The notes beneath the pieces were generated by a model, which was given only the letters and a program-made list of their open reading frames with translations, was not told the origin of the DNA and made no database searches. Below, piece after piece: positions 1 through 26,724 of a stretch of 64,000 bases of DNA (positions are counted from its first letter, which is position 1; each line of letters starts with the position of its first letter). Source of the stretch: Alphaproteobacteria bacterium (GTDB taxonomy: Bacteria > Pseudomonadota > Alphaproteobacteria > UBA7887); the NCBI GenBank assembly GCA_965216755.1, contig CBDCGL010000011.1, positions 1,280,001-1,344,000 of the forward strand. Direction: 5' to 3'. A program made the position numbers and the translations under genes.

Positions 1-330
1 AGGCGACGCCTGAAAGTACCGGAGCAAGCACGACGCGGCGAGCTTTTTACAGTCAAGTGTTTGGCTGAACATGATATGGAGACCGGCATACGCGTCGATC
101 AAAGCACCGGTGCCATCGTGCCTCGTATGATCATCCGTCGCGTGGAATGTCGATACAATGATGAGCTTGTTTTCTTTGCGGACTGGTTCCAAGGCGTGTC
201 GGCCAATCCATATTTGACGTTCAAATTGCGGGCTACCGATTCGGGGCCGATCGAAGTGCGATGGATCGACGACGCAGATCACACGACGACCGCGATCGCA
301 ACGATCGAAGTCGTTGACGACACAGGATAA
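1..330 (+). CDS. soxZ: SoxZ-like sulfur carrier protein (5' partial)
   Basis: Frame is open from base 1 (RRRLKVPEQARRGELFTVKCLAEHDMETG...); HxMETG and GVSANPYLTFKLRA motifs are typical of SoxZ. Confidence 0.75.
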   Translation, partial: RRRLKVPEQARRGELFTVKCLAEHDMETGIRVDQSTGAIVPRMIIRRVECRYNDELVFFADWFQGVSANPYLTFKLRATDSGPIEVRWIDDADHTTTAIATIEVVDDTG

Positions 331-399
331 ATCGCCAGTTGGCCTGTGCTTGTGAGATGTGCACACGGTGAATTGATCGCGCACTCTTGGACCGACTTG

Positions 400-414
400 T
401 GGCACAATGCATGC
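400..414 (+). promoter_or_regulatory. Putative sigma-54 (-24/-12) promoter
   Basis: TGGCACAATGCATGC, GG-N10-GC spacing, upstream of ORF 458..943. Confidence 0.4.
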
Positions 415-457
415 GTATTGCGCATCGTATCGGGCGACATAGCGTTGGGGCGATGAC

Positions 458-943
458 TTGGTTTCGGCCGGCCTGTCGCGACTCCCGCCCGAGATCGTTG
501 GAGGTTTGGACTTGCTTTGCGGCAAGAGTGTAGTGGCATTCTTCGCTTTGTTGGGCGCCAGTGTATCCGCGGCGCCGACAATAGCTGACACGATTGACAC
601 GTTCACGGTTTCGGGCCGTGGCTTCACCAGGCCGATCGCCATTCAAGACGCAGCTGAGGCGGCAATAGAGAAAGTGCTCCGCCGTTACGTGCCACCGGCG
701 GAGTTCGACGCAAATCTTGATGTCATCGAAGATCAAATCTTGGTGAAGCACGACAGGTACCTGACGTCTTTTCGCATCCTTGACGAAGCAAAAGCAGACG
801 ATGGCGCTACCGAAATCACGGCTGAAGCTTCTGTGAATATTGGAAAATTCGTGACGTCATTGCGAAATCTCAACATCGCTACCCGTTTAATTAGTCCCGG
901 CCCGAACCAAGCGGTCGAGGGTCGTCGCCGCGTCGATCGGTAG
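458..943 (+). CDS. Exported hypothetical protein, LPP20/FlgT N-terminal-like domain (start uncertain, possibly GTG 533)
   Basis: Signal-peptide-like VVAFFALLGASVSAA; VSGRG...AIQDAAEAAIEKV pattern. Confidence 0.5.
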   Translation: MVSAGLSRLPPEIVGGLDLLCGKSVVAFFALLGASVSAAPTIADTIDTFTVSGRGFTRPIAIQDAAEAAIEKVLRRYVPPAEFDANLDVIEDQILVKHDRYLTSFRILDEAKADDGATEITAEASVNIGKFVTSLRNLNIATRLISPGPNQAVEGRRRVDR

Positions 944-1535: not shown

Positions 1536-1988
1536 ATGACAACACTAACCGTAAACGGCCAAAGCCATACGGTGGAGGTCGCTCCCGATACCCCACTCTT
1601 GTGGGTGCTCAGGGAGCAGATGGGCCTAACCGGCACCAAGTATGGCTGCGGCATCGGCGAATGCGGAGCCTGCAACGTTCACATGAACGGTGAATTGATC
1701 AAGTCTTGCCAAACGTCGATCGGCAAGGCATCGGGCGCCGACATTACGACCATCGAAGGCTTGGGAGCGGACGGACTTCACCCGGTCCAACAAGCATTCA
1801 TCGATGAAAATGTCACCCAGTGCGGCTATTGCATTCCTGGGCAAATCATGACCATCGCGATGATGCTGGATAGCAATCCGGAGCCGACCGATCACGAAAT
1901 CGATGTCGCACTAAAAGAAAACTATTGCCGGTGCGGGGCATACACACGCATCCGGAAAGCGGTTCACCGAGCCGCATCCTCCGCTTGA
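1536..1988 (+). CDS. iorA: 2x[2Fe-2S] subunit of isoquinoline/aldehyde oxidoreductase (IorA-like)
   Basis: GTKYGCGIGECGAC...C and QCGYC...CRC motifs; RBS GGAGG. Confidence 0.9.
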   Translation: MTTLTVNGQSHTVEVAPDTPLLWVLREQMGLTGTKYGCGIGECGACNVHMNGELIKSCQTSIGKASGADITTIEGLGADGLHPVQQAFIDENVTQCGYCIPGQIMTIAMMLDSNPEPTDHEIDVALKENYCRCGAYTRIRKAVHRAASSA

Positions 1989-2004
1989 CCGATAGGAGGC
2001 AGAG

Positions 2005-4254
2005 ATGAGTGAAAAAATGGAAGTTACACGCAGAGATTTTATTGCAACAAGCGTCGCCGCGACTGGCGGCTTGATGATCGGCCTGCACCTGCCTTCGCTT
2101 GGCGGCCGATTAGCCAGGGCCGCGACCAACGGCAATGAGCTGAATGCATGGGTCCATATCGGGACCGACAATACGATCACCATCCGTGCCAGCCAAACTG
2201 AGCTGGGACAGGGCCCGACCATGGGCAACCTGATGATGCTCGCCGAAGAAATGGAGTGTAACTGGGACGACGTCACGTACGAGTTCGCGACCGGTCGTGA
2301 GGAGTACGTGAATCCGTTGGTCGGTCTTCAGTTGACCGGCGGCAGCACCGCGACTCCAGGCTTCTGGGATGTCATGCGCAAGGCGGGCGCCCAAACGCGT
2401 CACATGCTGGTCCAAGCGGCGGCAAAAATGTGGGATGTCGACCCCGCAGATTGCACGGCGAAAAACAGCAAGGTGACCTATAAGGGTCCCGGACCCGAGG
2501 GTAGTGGTATCGAAAAAGAGGCCACATTCGGCGAACTGGCCGAACTGGCTGCCCAAGAAACGCCACCGGAGGATCCGGCCCTCAAGTCCCCCGACGAGTT
2601 CCACTTGATCGGTACCGCCGTGAATCGACTGGACAACAAGGTCAAGGTCACCGGCGAGGCCATGTTCGGTATCGACCACGAAGTCGAAGGGATGGTCATC
2701 GGGGCAATTCGACATGCGCCGCTTGGCGGCAAGATTGCGAGCTACGACGAAGCCGCGGCCAAAGCGATGCCGGGTGTTCACGATGTTGTCGTGGTCGGCG
2801 CGGAAGAGCCCGCGATCTTCCTCGAAAACAATGTGCCAGCCTTGATCGTGACGGCCGATACCTACTGGCAAGCCGAGCAAGGCATGAAAGCCGCAAACCC
2901 GCAATGGGATTATGGTGAGTTTGCCGACCTCGACAGCGAACAGATGTCCAAAGCGTTCCATGACGGCTTGGAAGAAGAGGGCAAGCTGGGGCGTGCGGAT
3001 GGTGACGTCGACGCCGCGCTGGCATCGGCTGACACTGTCATAGAGGAAGTCTACGAAGTACCGTATATCAGCCATTCACCGCTGGAACCGCAAAACTGTT
3101 TGGCGGATTTCCGGGGTGATTCCTTGGAGATCTGGGCCTCGACCCAGGATCCGGGGGCTGGTTATGCGGTTGCCGAGATGATCACCGGACTGCCGCAAGA
3201 CAAGATCAAGATCCACATGACCTTTACCGGCGGTGGATTCGGACGTCGTGTCGAAGTCGATGCCTTAGAGCAGGCCGTCGAAGCGTCATTCCGCTTGAAG
3301 AAACCGGTCAAGTTGATCTGGTCTCGCGAAGAAGACATGCAGAACAATTTGAACCGACCGGGTTACGCCGCCAAGATGACGGCGGGCCTGGACGCGGACG
3401 GCAACCCAGTCGCATGGCGGCACAAGATTTCCGGTCCGGGAATCTGGTTGTCGCCGTACCGCTCATCGCGGTTGAAGAATCTGTTCGCCGGTTCCGACTT
3501 CATGAACGGCATGCAGGAAAGCGGAGTCGATTTCCATACGGCGCAAGGTGCGAAAGACATCGGCTACGACTTCGCCAACCTCGAAGTCGAGGTCGTGGAG
3601 AAGGACTTCCCGGTTCCGATCGTCTTCTTCCGCGCCGTCGGCAATACCCAAAACGCGTTCTTTATCGAGAGCTTTATTGACGAGATCGCGCATGCAGCGG
3701 GGCAAGATCCGTTCGAGCTTCGTCGCAAGCTGCTCGCCAAGGAACCGCGCATGCTTGCTGTGCTTGAGCTGGTCGCTGAGAAGGCCGGCTGGGGTGAGCC
3801 ACTTGAGAAAGGGCGTTTCCGCGGCATCGCCTTCCACAACAGCTTCGATTCACCATTTGCTGACGTCGTCGAGATTTCAGTCAGAGGTGGGCGGCGTGTT
3901 ACGATCCATCGTGTCGTCCGGGCAATCGACAACGGTCTTATCGTGAACCCGGATCAATGGGACGCTCAAATGCAGGCCGGTGTCGTTTGGGGCATTGGGC
4001 ATGCTGCGTTGAGCGAGCACACCTTCAAGGGCGCGAAGATGGTGCAAAGCAACTTCAACACGTACAAGTTGCCGCGCATTTCGCAGATGCCGGAATACGA
4101 AGCTCATGCGGTTCAGAATCAGAACGATCCGACAGGTATCGGCGAACCGGTGTTCATCAGCTTCACGCCGGCGCTGTGCAATGCGATCTTCGCCGCGACA
4201 GGCAAGCGGATTCGTTCACTGCCGCTGAAGAATCATGGCATTAGCCTGACGTAA
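2005..4254 (+). CDS. iorB: Xanthine-dehydrogenase-family molybdopterin subunit (IorB-like), Tat-exported
   Basis: TRRDFI Tat motif; ELGQG, TGGS, GGGFGRR, FRAVG and GIGEP motifs. Confidence 0.9.
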   Translation: MSEKMEVTRRDFIATSVAATGGLMIGLHLPSLGGRLARAATNGNELNAWVHIGTDNTITIRASQTELGQGPTMGNLMMLAEEMECNWDDVTYEFATGREEYVNPLVGLQLTGGSTATPGFWDVMRKAGAQTRHMLVQAAAKMWDVDPADCTAKNSKVTYKGPGPEGSGIEKEATFGELAELAAQETPPEDPALKSPDEFHLIGTAVNRLDNKVKVTGEAMFGIDHEVEGMVIGAIRHAPLGGKIASYDEAAAKAMPGVHDVVVVGAEEPAIFLENNVPALIVTADTYWQAEQGMKAANPQWDYGEFADLDSEQMSKAFHDGLEEEGKLGRADGDVDAALASADTVIEEVYEVPYISHSPLEPQNCLADFRGDSLEIWASTQDPGAGYAVAEMITGLPQDKIKIHMTFTGGGFGRRVEVDALEQAVEASFRLKKPVKLIWSREEDMQNNLNRPGYAAKMTAGLDADGNPVAWRHKISGPGIWLSPYRSSRLKNLFAGSDFMNGMQESGVDFHTAQGAKDIGYDFANLEVEVVEKDFPVPIVFFRAVGNTQNAFFIESFIDEIAHAAGQDPFELRRKLLAKEPRMLAVLELVAEKAGWGEPLEKGRFRGIAFHNSFDSPFADVVEISVRGGRRVTIHRVVRAIDNGLIVNPDQWDAQMQAGVVWGIGHAALSEHTFKGAKMVQSNFNTYKLPRISQMPEYEAHAVQNQNDPTGIGEPVFISFTPALCNAIFAATGKRIRSLPLKNHGISLT

Positions 4255-4400
4255 AAGAATGAGGCACCGGGTTGGGACATTTTCCCGGCCCGGTGACCTT
4301 CGCGTTTGAAGAGCGCTCCGGCGGTCTAATGGGCCGCCGGATTTTTTCGGCCTTCGGCCAGCTCATATTGATCGACGTGGCAAGAGGAACCATAAGAACG

Positions 4401-4856
4401 ATGACGTTGAATTCCGGCTTTCGCACCCGACCAAAATGCCGCTCGGCGTCGGCCTATTCGCGGCCTGAAAAGTCTGGCGTCATTGTTGCTCTCATCGGAT
4501 GTGGTGTGGTCTTCGCGGTCATGGCGCAGACAGTTGTCAAAGCTGAATCGCCCAACATATTGGCCGGACAGCGGACATTCATGATTCATTGCGAAGCGTG
4601 CCACGGCCCCGGCGGCGTTGGTGGCGCCGGCCCCAACCTGACCGACAACGACACGCTTCACGGTGGCACATACGAAGACATATTGGAAGTTGTCACGAAC
4701 GGCGTTCGTGGAAAACCGATGAATGCTTGGGAAAACAAGCTTGGCTTGGACCGAGTCAAGAATGTGGCCGCCTACGTGTTCAGCCTCAAAGGGACGCGCC
4801 CGAAGAGCGAGAAGACCTATGACGGCACGGCCGGCACAAATTTGAACCTGATGTAG
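4401..4856 (+). CDS. Monoheme cytochrome c (CcoP/c6-like); start uncertain
   Basis: CEACH, GPNLTD, distal Met in KPMNAW; N-terminal hydrophobic segment. Confidence 0.8.
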   Translation: MTLNSGFRTRPKCRSASAYSRPEKSGVIVALIGCGVVFAVMAQTVVKAESPNILAGQRTFMIHCEACHGPGGVGGAGPNLTDNDTLHGGTYEDILEVVTNGVRGKPMNAWENKLGLDRVKNVAAYVFSLKGTRPKSEKTYDGTAGTNLNLM

Positions 4857-4931: not shown

Positions 4932-5984
4932 TTAGTCATCAGGCGGCGACTGGTCAGCGTGCGGAATCTCGTAGACCCAGTAGCCGCCATAGTTGGCGAC
5001 CAATCGTAAAAAACTGAGGTCCTTTGGATTTGAGCTGCTGAACGGCAACATTTGGGCCAAGAGAGTTTCTTCGGTCATGCCATCTGTCAAAAAGTAGATT
5101 CGATTGGAGCGTCCACTCCGCCTGTCGATCGCATAGCTCTGATAGCCTTGTTCGCCAAGCCATGCATTTACTTGGCTGATCTCTGCATGCACATCGCCAC
5201 TGCGGACGAAATCGCGGTAGCCAATGCCGAACTTATCGGCCCGCAAAGCACCCAATTTGTATGCGTCGGCCAGACCAACAACGATATATGCGGGACGATT
5301 ACCGGCAAGCGCGCGCAGTGCCAGGGCACCCGTTTGCGGCGTTGCAAGCAGCGCATCGACGTAACTCGAAAACACCGGGTCAGCTTGCGACGGCACTTGC
5401 CAAAATTCTCTTTCCAAAGCCATGATCGCGTCGCTTTGGTCGCGCCATATCGGTGGCACGAGCACCGGCTGTGCCAGATTTCGATCGATGAGAACTTCGC
5501 TCTTCGTCAGAAATCTAAGCTGGCGCATCGTATCCCACCAGCCCAGAACAACCGCGGGGCTCGGAACATGTTCCCGAACGGCTTGGGCCAAGCGGCTGAG
5601 GTCGGACAGTGACTGAATCTCTGTCAGCAACGGCCGACCGGTAAGATTTTCCCAATTCAGCAGGATCGGTGGGCTATCGGGATCCGGTATTGCCGCGTGC
5701 GCGACGCCGATAATTGTGGCGTCTGCCTCAGCACGCACTTCGTACTTGCGGATCGACACCGCGTCGGGCACTGCCACGTCCAAGTCAAGGTGCGCAAATT
5801 CGGTGAGTGGCCCCTCGGCGACGAGTTCGTACCGGTATGGCGCATGGGCGGGTAAAAGTAAGGCGCACCCCGCCCAGTCGAACAACAGAAACCCGACCGC
5901 GATCAAACCGCCATAGACAAACGGAACAATCCGACTTTTGCCAACGCGTCGACGCCAAAGACTATGACGCCAAACGATCGCCAC
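4932..5984 (-). CDS. haoB: Hydroxylamine oxidation protein HaoB; start uncertain
   Basis: Overlaps the 3' end of haoA; N-terminal TM helix; VVLGWWD, LLAQMLPFSSSNP and GGYWVY motifs as recalled for HaoB. Confidence 0.8.
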   Translation of the reverse strand: MAIVWRHSLWRRRVGKSRIVPFVYGGLIAVGFLLFDWAGCALLLPAHAPYRYELVAEGPLTEFAHLDLDVAVPDAVSIRKYEVRAEADATIIGVAHAAIPDPDSPPILLNWENLTGRPLLTEIQSLSDLSRLAQAVREHVPSPAVVLGWWDTMRQLRFLTKSEVLIDRNLAQPVLVPPIWRDQSDAIMALEREFWQVPSQADPVFSSYVDALLATPQTGALALRALAGNRPAYIVVGLADAYKLGALRADKFGIGYRDFVRSGDVHAEISQVNAWLGEQGYQSYAIDRRSGRSNRIYFLTDGMTEETLLAQMLPFSSSNPKDLSFLRLVANYGGYWVYEIPHADQSPPDD

Positions 5985-7776
5985 CTCCAGGTTCAGTTGG
6001 CGAGCGGCGGCGACGGACCAAGCCAATGCCACCAATCACCATCATCGCGCCGCCGAGGCCAGCGATCGAAATTTTCTCAACATCACTCTCAAGCTCAAGA
6101 AATCCAAAACGCGTACGGCCTTCGATACTGGCAAGTTTCACACGCAAGCTCTCCATCTCACGCAATCGCGTGTCGGCATCGGCAATTCGCGCGTAGCATT
6201 CGACAAGCGGGCTCCACCCTTCGCTATACGCCCAACCACCGGGATTGGCGTGCGACAGCCCCTTGTACAATTTGTTGAGTTGATTCCCGCAGTTCCGAGC
6301 ATACTCGATCTCCGCGGCCGATGGGTTGTTACCGCTTGCGATAAATCCCTGAAAGAACTTGCCGGCGCCATCCTGTTCCGGGTCTGGCGGCGGCGGTCGA
6401 TTCGTTTGTTGCCCAACAAGCAGATTGTCCTCATATAATGCGTCAAGCACATGTTTGGCGTTCTGCTGCACTTTGAGACCGGAAATCGTTCCTTTATCGA
6501 CCATGTCCTGGTAGGCGCGGGCAAATGTTTCGGAGTGGCATTTGGTGCAGGTGGCAATCCATGCCTCCTTGCGAGTCTCGAACCAACTATCCCCTAGGTT
6601 ATCAGCGATCTCAGCGGTGGGACTAAAGGCCCAGCGCACCTTCCGCACGACATTATGGCCAAACTGACCCTTGAATTCGAAATGGCAACTGGCGCAGGTT
6701 GGCGCGGTCTGGCCACTCTTGGCAAACGCCTCATTCAGCGGCACTTCCCAATTCCATGAATCGCCAGATGTCTGGTAGATGATGCCGTGTTTCGACATCA
6801 TGTAGTTCTCAAACTCATTGTGCGCCGCGCCATTGTGACATGTCGCACACGCCTCAGGTTTGCGCGCTTCCGCCGCAGAGAAAAGATGGCGGGTATGGCA
6901 CGAATCGCATTTGTTCTGATTTGAGTGACAAGTCAAGCAACCTTCCGCGATCTCCCGCTCTGACATGGCGGCCCACATCGCCATTTCAACAATGGCATGA
7001 TAGTCAAGTGCGTGCGATGGTCGCCCGTTTGGCCACTGCCCCTGCGGCCAATTAAGAGTGTCACGTTCGGACTCACGCTCGGCGAACTCCTGCAAATGGC
7101 AGGTTCCACACACGGCGGCGTCGGGCAAACGCAAGTCTCGTTTATGATCGGCCTGTCCAAAACGCATGATTTCGACGTGGCAGTCCATGCAGGTGACGTC
7201 TGGAAGCCGTTGCTCTTCCTCCAGGTACCCCAGCATCACCAAGTTATTCTCGATTCGTTTGAGTTTCTCCTTCTTGTAATAGCGAGCGTCACTGGGCGGC
7301 AGATTCCGGATCTCGTTTAAATTGGCATGCGCGCTTTGCTTCCAGGCGATCACGTGTCCCGCCGTATCTTTTTCGTGGCATTCCACGCAGCCGGCGCGGT
7401 CGGACCCCTTCCCTTTTACGGGCGGTTCGTAAAACGAGTTGGGATTCAGATATCTGCTAAAAGGAATGGGATCCCAATAGTCGGCCTGGCTGCCCTCGCC
7501 GGCACCTTCCTCTTCATCGTGATAGCGCCATTCAAGAGCATCGAAGAGTTCTGCGGGGTCGCCCCCTTCTTCCAGCCCCAACGCGTCATACGTCTCGATC
7601 GGTATGTCCGCCCAAGTGCGCGACGCGATCGTCAGCGCCATGGCGATGCCGACGACATACGCGAACCAAAAGCGCTTTGGCCCCGTGTCAATCGTCAACA
7701 AGGGCGACGCTCGGTCGCACCACAGCGCGCGAAAACCTCTGGCAATCTCTTGCGACATCATGGGACGACTCCGCAC
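5962..7776 (-). CDS. haoA: Octaheme hydroxylamine oxidoreductase (HAO) family protein
   Basis: Eight CxxCH motifs (CVECH, CMDCH, CGTCH, CLTCH, CDSCH, CATCH, CASCH, CTKCH); GRPSHALDY; HANPGGWAYSEGW; signal peptide and C-terminal TM anchor. Confidence 0.95.
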   Translation of the reverse strand: MRSRPMMSQEIARGFRALWCDRASPLLTIDTGPKRFWFAYVVGIAMALTIASRTWADIPIETYDALGLEEGGDPAELFDALEWRYHDEEEGAGEGSQADYWDPIPFSRYLNPNSFYEPPVKGKGSDRAGCVECHEKDTAGHVIAWKQSAHANLNEIRNLPPSDARYYKKEKLKRIENNLVMLGYLEEEQRLPDVTCMDCHVEIMRFGQADHKRDLRLPDAAVCGTCHLQEFAERESERDTLNWPQGQWPNGRPSHALDYHAIVEMAMWAAMSEREIAEGCLTCHSNQNKCDSCHTRHLFSAAEARKPEACATCHNGAAHNEFENYMMSKHGIIYQTSGDSWNWEVPLNEAFAKSGQTAPTCASCHFEFKGQFGHNVVRKVRWAFSPTAEIADNLGDSWFETRKEAWIATCTKCHSETFARAYQDMVDKGTISGLKVQQNAKHVLDALYEDNLLVGQQTNRPPPPDPEQDGAGKFFQGFIASGNNPSAAEIEYARNCGNQLNKLYKGLSHANPGGWAYSEGWSPLVECYARIADADTRLREMESLRVKLASIEGRTRFGFLELESDVEKISIAGLGGAMMVIGGIGLVRRRRSPTEPGGGDRLAS

Positions 7777-8457
7777 TTACCAATATTCGGTTGGTTCGTA
7801 AAAATGCCTGAGCTGCCAGTTCGCATCCTTGTAGGATTCGCTCGGCTTGCCGGTCTCGCCGGGACGGTGGCGGCCCATCTCAATATCAATTTGTCGCGTT
7901 TCGCGGAAGTACTTCGCCATATCCAAAGGCGGCAGCGCCTGAGTCTGGTCGACCATTGGCGTATGGCACGAAATGCAACTTGTCGTCTTGTTTTGATAGC
8001 CGCTCCCGACCACTCCGGCGGTAAACCCTATCCAAACCAGGGATACACCCGACGCCAAAGCCAACCTTGGCCCCATCGCCAGTTTGTGGCCGGACGCCCT
8101 TTTGCGGCCGAAGAAAAACGGGATCACAACGAGGAACAGCAGGATCGCCAACGGAACCCAGAAGGTTCCAATCTGCAACCAAACCGCGTTGTCACCAACC
8201 AAATACCAAAACGGTTCGAACAAAAAAAGCAGGTACCACTCGGGCGCCGGCACATACGCGCCGTGATCGGGAAGCGGCGGTTGCATGTGATCGGTGGGAA
8301 CCCGGAAAAAGTAGGACAACAAGACAATGATCACGAACGTTATGAGAACCGCGATCCCCGCCTTAAGCGCATGTTTCGGCCAAAACCTGTGAAACCCCTG
8401 CGGATAAGGGGGCGCGTATTTTGCGTCGATGATGATGTCTTTGTCGGAACCCGTCAT
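7777..8457 (-). CDS. Cytochrome b C-terminal/subunit-IV-like protein fused to a c-type heme
   Basis: FWP and PEWY motifs, three TM helices, C-terminal CISCH. Confidence 0.85.
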   Translation of the reverse strand: MTGSDKDIIIDAKYAPPYPQGFHRFWPKHALKAGIAVLITFVIIVLLSYFFRVPTDHMQPPLPDHGAYVPAPEWYLLFLFEPFWYLVGDNAVWLQIGTFWVPLAILLFLVVIPFFFGRKRASGHKLAMGPRLALASGVSLVWIGFTAGVVGSGYQNKTTSCISCHTPMVDQTQALPPLDMAKYFRETRQIDIEMGRHRPGETGKPSESYKDANWQLRHFYEPTEYW

Positions 8458-8478
8458 CAGTCGTTCTCCGTCGGCGCC

Positions 8479-9111
8479 CTACAAGGGTTCGGAAATGCCG
8501 TGCTTCTTCACCATGGCGAAGTGAAAAAACAGCGACACGAACAAGATGATCGGCAGGATCAGCACGTGAATGATGAACGTGCGATAGATGGTGAACGCAT
8601 CCAACAGGAATGCTCTCACTGCTCCCCCGAAAAATGGCCACGTATCGACATAGTCTACCCAAATCGCGTAAGACCAATACGCGCGCCAGTCCCACGGCAG
8701 AATAATACCTGTAATAACGAACAAAAACACGATCACGAACTGGAAAACACCCGATACCCAATTGAGTTCGCGCGGGTTGCGGTACGCCTTTCGGTAGAAC
8801 ACAGTCAGCATATGGGTAAAGACCGTTGCCAATAGCAGCGTCGAACCCCAACGGTGGCCATTCCGAAACAACCAGCCAAACCTGACTTCGTTGCTCATAT
8901 ATTCGATGCTCTGCAAAGCCTCTTGCGGCGTGGCCGTGTAAAAGAAGACCATAAAAATGCCGGTCAGAACCTGTAGAATAATGATGAAAAAAGAAATTCC
9001 ACCAAAACAGTAATAATACGCGCCATTCGGAACGGCCTGGGCCCGTTTCTTACGTATGGCCTCACCGAAGCCGGTCCGGGACTCAATCCACCCTGAAATC
9101 TGAGAGATCAT
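8479..9111 (-). CDS. Cytochrome b6-like N-terminal cytochrome b
   Basis: YCFGG; His pair in HRWGSTLLLATVFTH; PRELNW; H-x14-H in helix D; ends GISEPL; RBS GGGGAG before ATG 9111. Confidence 0.9.
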   Translation of the reverse strand: MISQISGWIESRTGFGEAIRKKRAQAVPNGAYYYCFGGISFFIIILQVLTGIFMVFFYTATPQEALQSIEYMSNEVRFGWLFRNGHRWGSTLLLATVFTHMLTVFYRKAYRNPRELNWVSGVFQFVIVFLFVITGIILPWDWRAYWSYAIWVDYVDTWPFFGGAVRAFLLDAFTIYRTFIIHVLILPIILFVSLFFHFAMVKKHGISEPL

Positions 9112-9730: not shown

Positions 9731-10975
9731 ATGTCGAACGGTGCGAATTGTCGCGTGCGGCAGAAGAAGGAAGTCTGCTGGTCGGCGACCACAGCACTGC
9801 TTATCGGTTGGCTGTGCACGGTACCCGGTGTGGACGTGGCCGCGTTCGATGAAACGCATTTGAAGAAGTTTCAGGCCTTGAACCAGTGCATAGATTGCGA
9901 TTTGAGCGACGCGGCACTCGCAGGCACGGATCTTCGTCGCGCCCGATTAACCGGCGCCGACTTGCGAAACGCCGACCTGACGGCAAGCGACTTGCGCGCG
10001 GCAAATCTGAACGAGGCGAACCTTTTCAAAGCGATTTTGTCAAAAGCAGACTTGAACAATAGCATTTTGACTAATGCCGATTTGCGGCAAACTGATCTTA
10101 ACAACAGTTCCTTGGCTTTCGCGAAAATGGATGGGGCGGATCTGAGCAGGGCCGAGGCTGCCGAAAGCGATATGTCCCGTGCCAATCTTCGAGATGCGAA
10201 TTTGGCCGACGCGACGTTGAACGGTGCGAATTTCGGCAAGGCCGACCTGCGCGTGGCGAATCTGGGGGGCGCAAGCCTAATTGGTTCAAACTTTGCGAAA
10301 GCCGTCCTCAGAATGGCGATCCTCAGCGACGCGGACCTGACCGGGGCCAATTTGAACGAGGCTGATTTGGCCTTGGCCGATCTATACGGCGCCAATTTGT
10401 CCGCGGTCAGTTTGGCCTGGGCGAGCGCCGTCCGGGCCAGCCTTGGGGATACGAACTTCACCCACGCGACGCTGACAAGGACCGACTTTGGTGACAGCGA
10501 TTTGGCTGGCGCCGATATGAGCAACGCCGATTTGCGGCGTACGAAACTGCATGGCGCGTTGCTCGGCGAAGTGCGTTTCGTCGGCGCCGATTTGGAAGGC
10601 GCCGATCTCAGTCAAGCAGACGCCGGCGGCGCCGATCTAAGCAATGCGATTTTGCGCGAGACCGATCTTGCCGGTGCTGATTTCAGTGAGGCGATCTTTC
10701 AAGGCGCGGATCTGAAACAGGCAAACCTACGGCGCGCGAGCTTGGCTGGCGCCGATCTGACGGGCGCCGACCTTACTGGCGCGAATTTGCGTAAAGCGAT
10801 CCTACGCGACGCAACGTTTGCTGACGCCCAACTGCGAAATGCGGATCTGAGTGGGGCGGATCTGACGGGTGCCACTCTCGTATCGGCCAATTTAGACGAC
10901 ACCAAAATGACAGGCGCAACGCTTTGCCGAACGCAATTGCCGACGGGCGAGATCAACGCGGGGTGCGAAGAATGA
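9731..10975 (+). CDS. Exported pentapeptide repeat protein
   Basis: Long A(D/N)Lxx repeat run; signal peptide; CxxC at the start and LCRT...GC at the end. Confidence 0.9.
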   Translation: MSNGANCRVRQKKEVCWSATTALLIGWLCTVPGVDVAAFDETHLKKFQALNQCIDCDLSDAALAGTDLRRARLTGADLRNADLTASDLRAANLNEANLFKAILSKADLNNSILTNADLRQTDLNNSSLAFAKMDGADLSRAEAAESDMSRANLRDANLADATLNGANFGKADLRVANLGGASLIGSNFAKAVLRMAILSDADLTGANLNEADLALADLYGANLSAVSLAWASAVRASLGDTNFTHATLTRTDFGDSDLAGADMSNADLRRTKLHGALLGEVRFVGADLEGADLSQADAGGADLSNAILRETDLAGADFSEAIFQGADLKQANLRRASLAGADLTGADLTGANLRKAILRDATFADAQLRNADLSGADLTGATLVSANLDDTKMTGATLCRTQLPTGEINAGCEE

Positions 10976-11619
10976 GCACCGGTATCCTGATCTGGCGCTG
11001 TTCGCTTGTCATAGGGGTCGCAGTGTGCCTCGGTTGGCATGTCCAAGCCAGTCGTGCATTTGATGAAACGGCCGTCGAAACGCTGAGGGAGAGCAATGCC
11101 TGCCCGAAGTGCGATTTGCGGGACGCCGATCTGCGTCATGCCGATCTCGCCGATGCCGACCTTAGTGGTGCAAATTTGATCGGCGCAAAACTCGGAGCCG
11201 CGAATCTCACCGGCGCCAACTTGGAACATGCGAGGCTGCGAGACGCCGATTTGACGGCCGCAATTCTTGCCAATGCGGTTTTGTCGGACTCGAGACTTGA
11301 GCGCGCACGATTAAATGGTGCGAACCTGACGGAGGCGGATGTACAGCGTTCTGACCTGCGCCAAGCGGACCTAAGCGGCGCTGACCTTCGAGGGGCCAAC
11401 TTTACCGCGGCTTTCCTGGTTGGTACGAACCTCAACGATGCCAAATTGTCCGGTGCCATTTTGAGCCAAGCTTTGTTACGGGAAAGTCGGCTGGACCGGG
11501 TCGATCTAACTGATCTGGACATCAGCACCAGCGATTTAAGAAATGCGCGCGTTGACGAAGCGATTTTTTGCCGCACGATCACGCCTTGGGGCCTTGATGA
11601 CAGTGGTTGTCCGAACTGA
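10972..11619 (+). CDS. Exported pentapeptide repeat protein (paralog)
   Basis: ATGA overlap with the previous gene; AFDET...CPKCDL and FCRT...GC caps. Confidence 0.9.
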   Translation: MSTGILIWRCSLVIGVAVCLGWHVQASRAFDETAVETLRESNACPKCDLRDADLRHADLADADLSGANLIGAKLGAANLTGANLEHARLRDADLTAAILANAVLSDSRLERARLNGANLTEADVQRSDLRQADLSGADLRGANFTAAFLVGTNLNDAKLSGAILSQALLRESRLDRVDLTDLDISTSDLRNARVDEAIFCRTITPWGLDDSGCPN

Positions 11620-26056: not shown

Positions 26057-26202
26057 CTCACCCGGTGACTCCAGGCGGCATCCGCTGATTGTTTCTTGGA
26101 TTAATCGATGGGTCCCATAGATTGTGCTGGCGAACGCGGCTTGCTAACGGCACCTTTAAACACAAAAGAATGCGCAAAACAGTACGAGGAGAGGAGATCA
26201 CA

Positions 26203-26724
26203 ATGAAGGCTAGAATTTTGGCGATCGGCACCGTCACCGCGATCATCGCCGCTTCCAGCGCTTGGGCCGGATCGGAGCGTGTCACGTTTCCAGAGGGTTT
26301 TAAGGATTCGTTCACGTACTTTATGACCAGCGAGCGCGCCGACAACAATCAAGTGCGCTTCCTCTATGCGAATGACTTGGCCATTCAGGGCGCCCGCGAA
26401 GGCGGCGCGCTACCGAACGGGGCACAGTTCGCTATGGAGGTTTTTGCAGCCCAAGTCGACGAGAACGGCGAACCAGTGCTGGACAGCGACGGTAAATTCA
26501 TACCGGAGATCTTGAAGGTCATCGCAGTCATGGAAAAGGGCGAAGGCTGGGGCAACGACTACCCCGAGGATGTTCGCAATGGGGACTGGGAATACGCCTT
26601 TTTTGCCCCGGACGGAGCATTGAAGGCCGATGTCGAGACCGGGCCATGCATGGAATGCCATTTACCGTACGCGGAGGACGACTACATCATCTATCGCGAT
26701 CAACTTGATGCGGCCGCTCAGTAA
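26203..26724 (+). CDS. Cytochrome P460 / c'-beta family protein
   Basis: Signal peptide; FPEGF, VMEK, GDWEYAFF and C-terminal CMECH; RBS GAGGAG. Confidence 0.85.
   Translation: MKARILAIGTVTAIIAASSAWAGSERVTFPEGFKDSFTYFMTSERADNNQVRFLYANDLAIQGAREGGALPNGAQFAMEVFAAQVDENGEPVLDSDGKFIPEILKVIAVMEKGEGWGNDYPEDVRNGDWEYAFFAPDGALKADVETGPCMECHLPYAEDDYIIYRDQLDAAAQ

Follow-up and report, generated by a model that had tools for sequence, protein, structure and literature searches.

A cytochrome b6-like pair without a Rieske protein and an aspartate-less HaoA share an operon in a family of Alphaproteobacteria

Gene content of the operon

We analysed a window of 64,000 nt from an alphaproteobacterial genome (assembly GCA_965216755.1, contig CBDCGL010000011.1, positions 1,280,001 to 1,344,000) that contains four minus-strand genes related to hydroxylamine oxidoreductase (HAO) and to membrane cytochromes b. 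Positions follow the numbering of this window; the source genome, G000, is 99.8% complete and C11 is its contig. As proposed in the initial annotation, all four genes are present and encode, in this order, the N-terminal half of a cytochrome b6-like protein (cytb), a subunit IV-like protein with a c-type haem motif, HaoA and HaoB (Table 1). We searched for this arrangement in the 23 genomes of the family, which also represent the entire order in the genome collection searched. The cytb-cytb/c-haoA-haoB synteny recurs without a Rieske gene or cycAB in 11 of them, and haoA and the subunit IV gene, found in the same 11 genomes, are adjacent in all. The ten relatives keep the same gene order as far as their contigs extend. 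Conservation in all 10 other haoA-bearing family genomes places the four-gene arrangement beyond chance. The source labels of the clustered proteins are uncultured Alphaproteobacteria, including MarineAlpha9 bins.

The gaps described initially hold in part. The gap of 21 nt between cytb and the subunit IV gene is exact, whereas the other two values hinge on the choice of start codons. The subunit IV and haoA genes are separated by 0 nt only with a GTG start at 7776. The start called in the database, an ATG at 7761 preceded by GGAG (599 aa, P0124), leaves a gap of 15 nt and is probably the true one. The overlap of haoA and haoB is 23-74 nt for haoB starts between 5984 and 6035. Scans for promoters (2 vs 3.0) and terminators (5 vs 7.6) were both at chance level. 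As had been noted, the window contains no Rieske gene (PF00355 matches 5 genes of the genome and 0 in C11:1280001-1344000) and no amo or pmo gene. It also contains no multihaem open reading frame besides haoA.

Table 1. Genes and codons of the operon, followed by its neighbours
Feature	Position (nt)	Strand	Remarks
Cytochrome b6-like N-terminal half	8479..9111	-	210 aa; PF00033 123 bits; best solved matches cytochrome b6
Subunit IV-like protein	7777..8457	-	226 aa; PEWY at 72-75; three transmembrane helices; CxxCH 161-165
haoA-like octahaem cytochrome c	5962..7776	-	8 CxxCH; C-terminal membrane anchor; 688 bits to Nitrosomonas europaea HAO
haoB	4932..5984 (start 5984, or up to 6035)	-	TIGR04392 285.6 bits (cut-off 200)
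Ala318 codon of HaoA	6823..6825	-	Site of N. europaea catalytic Asp267; His319 (= His268) comes next, kept
Tyr517 codon of HaoA	6226..6228	-	P460 cross-link tyrosine (= Tyr467), kept; from alignment
Cys496 / Cys527 codons of HaoA	6289-6291 / 6196-6198	-	Clade-specific Cys pair
Monohaem cytochrome c	4272..4856	+	Convergent on haoB; mono- to tetrahaem counterparts at same site in relatives
iorA/iorB-like 2Fe-2S and molybdenum subunits	1536..4254	+	Best solved match aldehyde dehydrogenase large subunit 8GY3
soxZ (start just upstream of window) and conserved 161-aa hypothetical gene	61..943	+	
soxY-like, FGE-like and fccB-like genes	0-4 kb upstream of window		
Two secreted pentapeptide-repeat genes	9731..11619	+	Divergent from cytb; in 14/20 HAO-type loci

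The cytochrome b6-like unit

The cytochrome b half presents His86, His100, His182 and His197 as ligands of haems bL and bH, and its Cys35 aligns with Cys35 of cytochrome b6 (1Q90), a residue that binds haem cn at the inner quinone site. The four histidines, Cys35 and the PEWY motif are invariant in 69/69 copies of the module. Because Cys35 and PEWY never vary, selection appears to act on the two quinone sites alike. The cd-helix region is unlike that of b6, with invariant Trp142, Arg143 and Trp151 and a 5-residue deletion.

The second protein can be assigned to subunit IV only weakly, from its motif, topology, position and a few weak matches. It has no Pfam or NCBIfam match, its profile match to subunit IV of the b6f complex has an E-value of about 0.8, and an Atlas lead (0.84) points to the menaquinol-cytochrome c reductase b/c subunit. 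Fold searches with its structural model returned nothing significant (Foldseek top match 1Q90_D at E 5, on a model with a predicted local distance difference test score, pLDDT, of 56). His218, conserved in the tail, is a candidate sixth haem ligand. The residues of this tail differ systematically between copies linked to HAO and copies linked to NosZ (described below). Such differences are expected of a tail that meets a new partner, but shared descent would yield the same pattern.

The pair resembles b6f and Bacillus QcrABC-type complexes in its split cytochrome b, its four histidines with b6-type spacing, Cys35, PEWY and a subunit IV-like protein with a C-terminal c haem, which is the layout of QcrC. 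It differs from both in the lack of a Rieske subunit, in a c-haem tail of ~65 aa that matches no cytochrome c family, and in the remodelled cd region.

The active site of HaoA

We aligned 131 HaoA sequences: the window protein, 119 search matches, ten family loci and the protein of Ruegeria pomeroyi. Residue numbers are those of N. europaea HAO, obtained by counting in the alignment with 4FAS. The window protein keeps eight haem motifs, His268, His459 and Tyr467 and has Ala at the position of Asp267. This Ala is present in 21/21 sequences of one clade (63-100% identical, some redundant), whereas all 110 other close HAOs have Asp. At the HAO-type module loci that reach the site, it was found in 17 of 17. 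Tyr467 is kept in 20/20 clade sequences reaching that residue. The clade lies on a long stem, weakly beside Nitrosococcus HAOs under a midpoint root, and the window protein is about 51-58% identical to the other close HAOs. Among 84 more distant HAO-like representatives with the motif, 19 lack the Asp and none has Ala.

Other positions changed in the Ala clade include Leu427, Trp429 and Met445. Cys496 and Cys527, invariant in the clade (20/20) and absent from the 110 other HAOs, possibly form a disulfide near the cross-link helix. We rejected the loss of Tyr334 as a trait special to the clade, as it is common to Nitrosococcus-type HAOs. Single-chain models of HaoA without haems (pLDDT 66) and of the subunit IV-like protein were both poor and yielded no usable distances.

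The tyrosine cross-link is generally accepted as diagnostic of oxidative HAOs and its loss marks the nitrite-reducing HAOr, according to the accessible part of PMC8042395. The tyrosine that HAOr lacks is present in the window HaoA. The Asp is retained in 6H5L and 6T5E, the structures of two HAO-like proteins from anammox bacteria. The portions of PMC11928373 and PMC11726666 available to us agree on the role of the distal carboxylate, and an excerpt of PMC10728637, in which the residues are not named, gives ~99% conservation of six HAO site residues in soil ammonia oxidisers. Since Asp267 is lost, oxidation of hydroxylamine cannot be assumed.

Origin and distribution of the membrane unit

We retrieved 229 relatives of the subunit IV-like protein and classified 99 of their loci (9 from the genome scan, 10 from the family and the best 80 of 105 metagenomic loci). 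This set contains near-duplicates and yields 69 distinct rows of cytb and subunit IV. Twenty loci are of the HAO type, 71 belong to a second, NosZ-like type and 8 could not be assigned. In the second type, the cytb pair lies amid a small conserved gene, propeller genes and cytochromes c. A NosZ-like gene falls within the locus in 23 of these 71 loci, the other 48 being assigned by marker genes only. The NosZ-like neighbour matches the Pfam lactonase, nos_propeller and cupredoxin families in all four copies scanned and carries a CuA motif in 21/21 full-length copies. It therefore fits the description of clade III nosZ, in which cytochrome neighbours are unspecified (PMC13477213). A loose Rieske motif, which recovered 5/5 controls, gave a single match across the 99 loci, in an antisense frame inside nosZ, and none that is credible.

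A tree was built under LG+G4 from concatenated cytb and subunit IV for 34 of the 69 distinct rows, hand-picked to span the FastTree clades, and was rooted on Nitrospirae copies. The HAO-linked copies form one clade (100/100) that is sister (96/93) to NosZ-type copies, including one from a Rhodospirillaceae genome. FastTree on all 69 rows agrees and nests the HAO-linked copies among NosZ-type ones. As the HAO-linked copies nest within Rieske-less copies linked to NosZ-like proteins, the cytb pair was not stripped of its Rieske partner for HAO. The simplest reading of these trees would be that the unit, already without a Rieske protein, was recruited once from a nosZ cluster of the lactonase type. 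Clade III (lactonase-type) nosZ clusters, reportedly described by He et al. in 2025, share with the operon the same pair of cytb and subunit IV with haem c (40-75% identical) and the lack of a Rieske gene. The family differs in having no small upstream gene, no propeller genes and no close match to lactonase-type NosZ (0/23 genomes; the best match, at 31%, is an ordinary nosZ), and the partner here is a multihaem rather than a copper enzyme.

In addition, many NosZ-type metagenomic loci (L098-L146) encode, upstream of the split pair, another cytochrome b that is fused and ~390 aa long. An apparent fusion of subunit IV and HaoA in G022 (L046:1909-4203, G022:C136) was discarded as an artefact of a 100-N scaffold gap.

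Rieske proteins and cycAB elsewhere in the genome

G000 contains five genes with a Rieske domain: the one of its own petABC, an orphan copy of petA and three others of non-bc1 type. The orphan petA (G000:C11:20990-21670, L013) is 64% identical to the bc1 Rieske protein, has no petB and neighbours genes for a cytochrome c and a probable heavy-metal ATPase; it was not found in five relatives. These five near-complete hao-bearing genomes each have one strong PetA-type match, always beside its own petB, so that none holds a conserved spare Rieske protein of this type.

No orthologue of cycA (cytochrome c554) or cycB (cM552) was found in G000, where the best matches are a protein with 28% identity over 139 aa (NF043010 42.5 bits, cut-off 400) and the NapC beside napA. 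The earlier proposal that a stripped cytochrome b replaces c554 and cM552 is thus supported in part: the module sits in the cycA/cycB slot in the same 11 of 23 genomes, all without cycAB, but it was not stripped for HAO. The operon has in common with the haoA-haoB-cycA-cycB module of ammonia oxidisers the haoA-haoB tandem, eight haems, His268, Tyr467 and the membrane anchor. It differs from that module in the absence of c554 and cM552, the cytochrome b6-like pair upstream, Ala at Asp267, changes at other near-invariant residues and a family without RuBisCO. Among 400 genomes sampled across the class, the sole HAO outside the family was found in G260, as haoA-haoB-cycA-cycB with an Asp-type HaoA. 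This genome (another family, 96% complete; L159:5944-11223, G260:C5) carries a cytochrome P460 gene beside the cluster and has no xmoB match, and thus presents a nitrifier-style redox module without a monooxygenase.

Two other regions of G000 are rich in redox genes. A cluster at G000:C11:4.533-4.544 Mb (L053:4927-15921) encodes cytochromes with 10, 4 and 5 haems, of which one has a weak c554-like domain. At G000:C11:4.718-4.728 Mb (L020:6221-16484), an eNOR-like haem-copper oxidase is followed by a 519-aa fusion of cytochrome b and ferredoxin without a nearby Rieske gene, and then by nirS. The fusion adds another Rieske-less cytochrome b to that of the operon.

Host metabolism

The initial annotation described the host as an apparently heterotrophic non-nitrifier. 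The first part is supported by the lack of RuBisCO in all 23 family genomes, other carbon-fixation routes having only been scanned by motif. The second is not established, as a search of the rest of the genome for amo and pmo revealed a complete operon for a copper membrane monooxygenase (CuMMO). It comprises xmoC-A-B-D with a multicopper oxidase and a CusF/cupredoxin gene and lies about 95 kb upstream (G000:C11:1189776-1196182, L019:9777-16183). The xmo order is the same in five relatives, and these enzymes form a family-specific CuMMO clade near those of Cycloclasticus. XmoA passes the NCBIfam cut-off for AmoA (NF041557, 342 bits vs 290) and scores ~300 bits to gammaproteobacterial particulate methane monooxygenase vs ~265 to ammonia monooxygenase structures. 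Its nearest named relatives are Cycloclasticus enzymes (59-63%), and it groups with the Cycloclasticus particulate hydrocarbon monooxygenase (pHMO). According to the accessible text of PMC12510462, short alkanes are the hypothesised substrates of the Cycloclasticus enzymes, apart from one clade whose substrate is unknown. In the family, xmoA is present in 6/23 genomes, 5 of which have hao. G000 also carries 12 pyrroloquinoline quinone (PQQ) dehydrogenases, Nap, two nirS, the eNOR-like oxidase and nosZ. The most fitting description of G000 is that of a heterotrophic denitrifier that carries a CuMMO; it is not a proven nitrifier, nor can it be called a clean non-nitrifier.

A conserved sulfur/aldehyde island

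The pentapeptide-repeat genes flank the operon on the cytb side. On the haoB side, an island that spans the start of the window has the order FGE-like, fccB, soxY-like, soxZ, hypothetical, iorA, iorB, cytochrome c and hao module. This order is kept in genera g1, g3 and g8, and parts of it in g2. The fccB paralogue of the island (71-82% identity) is present in 11/11 hao-bearing genomes and in 1/12 others, and an iorB orthologue scores above threshold in 8/11, with a fragment in G008. SoxB was found in none of the 23 family genomes, which places soxYZ outside an ordinary Sox pathway. The 11 hao-bearing genomes are kin, so their shared island counts as one event and not eleven: it was acquired once and has persisted over ~30% divergence at the protein level, and it does not amount to independent evidence. 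The monohaem cytochrome c that abuts haoB is a candidate soluble redox partner of the HAO.

Possible functions of the operon

Coupling of the module to quinone is likely, judging from its sequence and context, because it occupies the cycAB position, none of its cofactor ligands is missing and no conserved spare Rieske protein exists. For the operon as a whole, we tentatively put forward, as the leading candidate, hydroxylamine oxidation by a retuned HaoAB wired to quinone, an account that we regard as possible but short of probable and that draws on the retention of Tyr467, His268 and HaoB. The enzyme would be a membrane-bound periplasmic dehydrogenase in which a tyrosine-cross-linked HaoA trimer and HaoB are wired to the quinone pool by the Rieske-less cytochrome b6-like unit. 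Hydroxylamine would come from the surroundings or, where xmo is present, from co-oxidation of ammonia, an activity of CuMMOs (PMC6215863, in the part available). In the retuned site, His268 would work without Asp267. Electrons would pass from the HAO haems to the tail haem c, the cytochrome b haems and quinone, which would then feed the separate bc1 complex and oxidases of the cell. The role would be detoxification or extra energy for a heterotroph rather than autotrophic nitrification; co-transcription, complex formation, cross-link formation, the direction of flow and the substrate are steps that we infer. This account is consistent with the cross-link type of haoA (Tyr467 in 20/20), with a HaoB above its cut-off and with the lack of cycAB, the Asp-keeping G260 having cycAB instead. 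Nitric oxide (NO) could be removed in G000 by nirS, the eNOR-like oxidase and nosZ. A detoxification role is plausible for methanotroph HAO (mHAO) and R. pomeroyi haoAB, which likewise combine haoAB without cycAB and a non-autotrophic host; the R. pomeroyi genes differ in having no cytochrome b neighbour and in keeping the Asp.

Several observations weigh against hydroxylamine oxidation. The driving force from hydroxylamine/NO to ubiquinone is only ~0.1 V, and the older partner of the module is a reductase. The replacement of Asp267 by Ala (21/21, against Asp in 110/110) is accompanied in the Ala clade by the loss of Asn211 (110/110 elsewhere), Thr466 and Glu447 (109/110 each). The accessible part of PMC6457333 indicates that the HAO Asp and His contact the bound substrate, and that a cytochrome P460 with Ala for the distal carboxylate cannot oxidise NH2OH. 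The latter, from Nitrosomonas sp. AL212 (Ala131), is a natural cross-linked P460, as is presumed here, but it has an unrelated fold and a Lys cross-link. The analogy is suggestive only, because HAO keeps the distal His (His268) that cytochrome P460 lacks. In addition, only 5/11 hao-bearing genomes have xmoA. Four that are 98-99% complete (G001, G007, G009 and G012) gave no match to xmoA or xmoB, although the xmoB search also gave no control match. In G009, a multicopper oxidase and CusF gene remain (L160:5931-9059, G009:C13) with only a remnant of xmoD; xmoCAB appears to have been deleted there while the hao module was kept.

The operon might instead work in the reductive direction, ancestral for the module, which we consider unlikely. 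Quinol would be oxidised at PEWY and the octahaem protein would reduce nitrite to NO, or NO and hydroxylamine to ammonium, loss of the catalytic base disabling oxidation. The nesting of HAO-linked modules inside NosZ-like-linked ones fits this direction, and oxidative HAOs reduce nitrite, NO and NH2OH in vitro (PMC8042395, accessible text). Strong nirS matches were found only in G000, G002 and G013, and nirK exceeds its cut-off only in the hao-negative G004. Most hao-bearing genomes thus have no nirS match and none has nirK, which leaves the slot of a nitrite reductase open. However, Tyr467 is kept, and with 6H5L and 6T5E retaining Asp and HAOr lacking the cross-link, Asp loss is no known signature of a reductase. 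In the genomes of g8 and g2 no eNOR-like gene was found, and NO would be made there without an evident sink.

An HAO-family member without its active-site Asp is joined here to a b6-like unit without a Rieske protein, and there is a real chance of a new activity. In its specific form, an Asp-less P460-type octahaem protein would oxidise sulfide, small thiols or another non-hydroxylamine substrate within the sulfur/aldehyde island, through a Rieske-less b6-type loop whose haem-c tail replaces the Rieske cluster; we rate this proposal as rather unlikely. Its sulfur variant, in which the Asp-less and more hydrophobic pocket oxidises sulfide or a small thiol (to aldehyde and H2S), seems quite unlikely. 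The molybdenum aldehyde dehydrogenase and the FccB/SoxYZ-like proteins would handle the products, and low-potential electrons would cross the membrane via bL, bH and cn to quinone in an energy-conserving loop. HS- and thiols require less base assistance than NH2OH. The distribution of the fccB paralogue, the island order, conserved in three genera and in part in a fourth, and the lack of SoxB all point in this direction, and the island tracks hao better than xmo does. On the other hand, kin inherit islands together. G006 (86% complete) keeps the FGE-like, fccB and hypothetical genes with no hao found, and the hao and sulfur genes lie on opposite strands. To our knowledge, no P460 enzyme of the HAO family oxidises sulfur compounds, no search having been aimed at this point.

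Finally, it is improbable that HAO and the module have no direct contact, with electrons carried by soluble convergent cytochromes c or the cytb pair borrowing a Rieske protein as an ordinary Rieske/cytb complex: in the relatives, haoB is abutted by a cytochrome c gene wherever the locus reaches that far, G000 has the orphan petA and three other non-bc1 Rieske-domain genes, and PEWY is intact, but each strong PetA-type match in the five near-complete relatives lies beside its own petB, the 99 loci hold no credible Rieske match, and the cd-helix region has departed from that of b6.

We found no description of a cytb-haoAB operon or of an Asp-less oxidative-type HAO in the literature searched, most subscription papers and supplements being outside its reach. 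The accessible parts of PMC6215863, PMC11135946, PMC12636513, PMC8879329 and PMC11758582 likewise do not describe a cytb-haoAB operon. These results bear on the use of hao as a marker of nitrification. On the strength of hao alone, a deep-ocean genome related to MarineAlpha9 was labelled a potential ammonia oxidiser, according to the available text of PMC8139981, and the active site of the Ala clade casts doubt on such calls. If the substrate is not hydroxylamine, a hao call in these genomes would be no sign of nitrification whatsoever. The Asp of HAO is proposed to shuttle protons. The Ala clade is a natural knock-out of this residue, the only one that we found, and restoring the Asp is the obvious control. 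The same Rieske-less b6-like unit serves copper N2O-reductase-like and multihaem enzymes and looks like a portable quinone adaptor. These two settings make it testable whether a Qo/PEWY site and haem cn can function in the absence of a Rieske cluster.

Additional observations

Directly downstream of the window (L054:5649-11597) lies a DmsA-family molybdoenzyme with a ferredoxin, a chaperone and a pentahaem cytochrome. Within the window, a plus-strand gene at 26089-26724 encodes a protein of the cytochrome P460/c'-beta fold that is 36% identical to the P460 of G260, and a second copy is located near C11:3663354.

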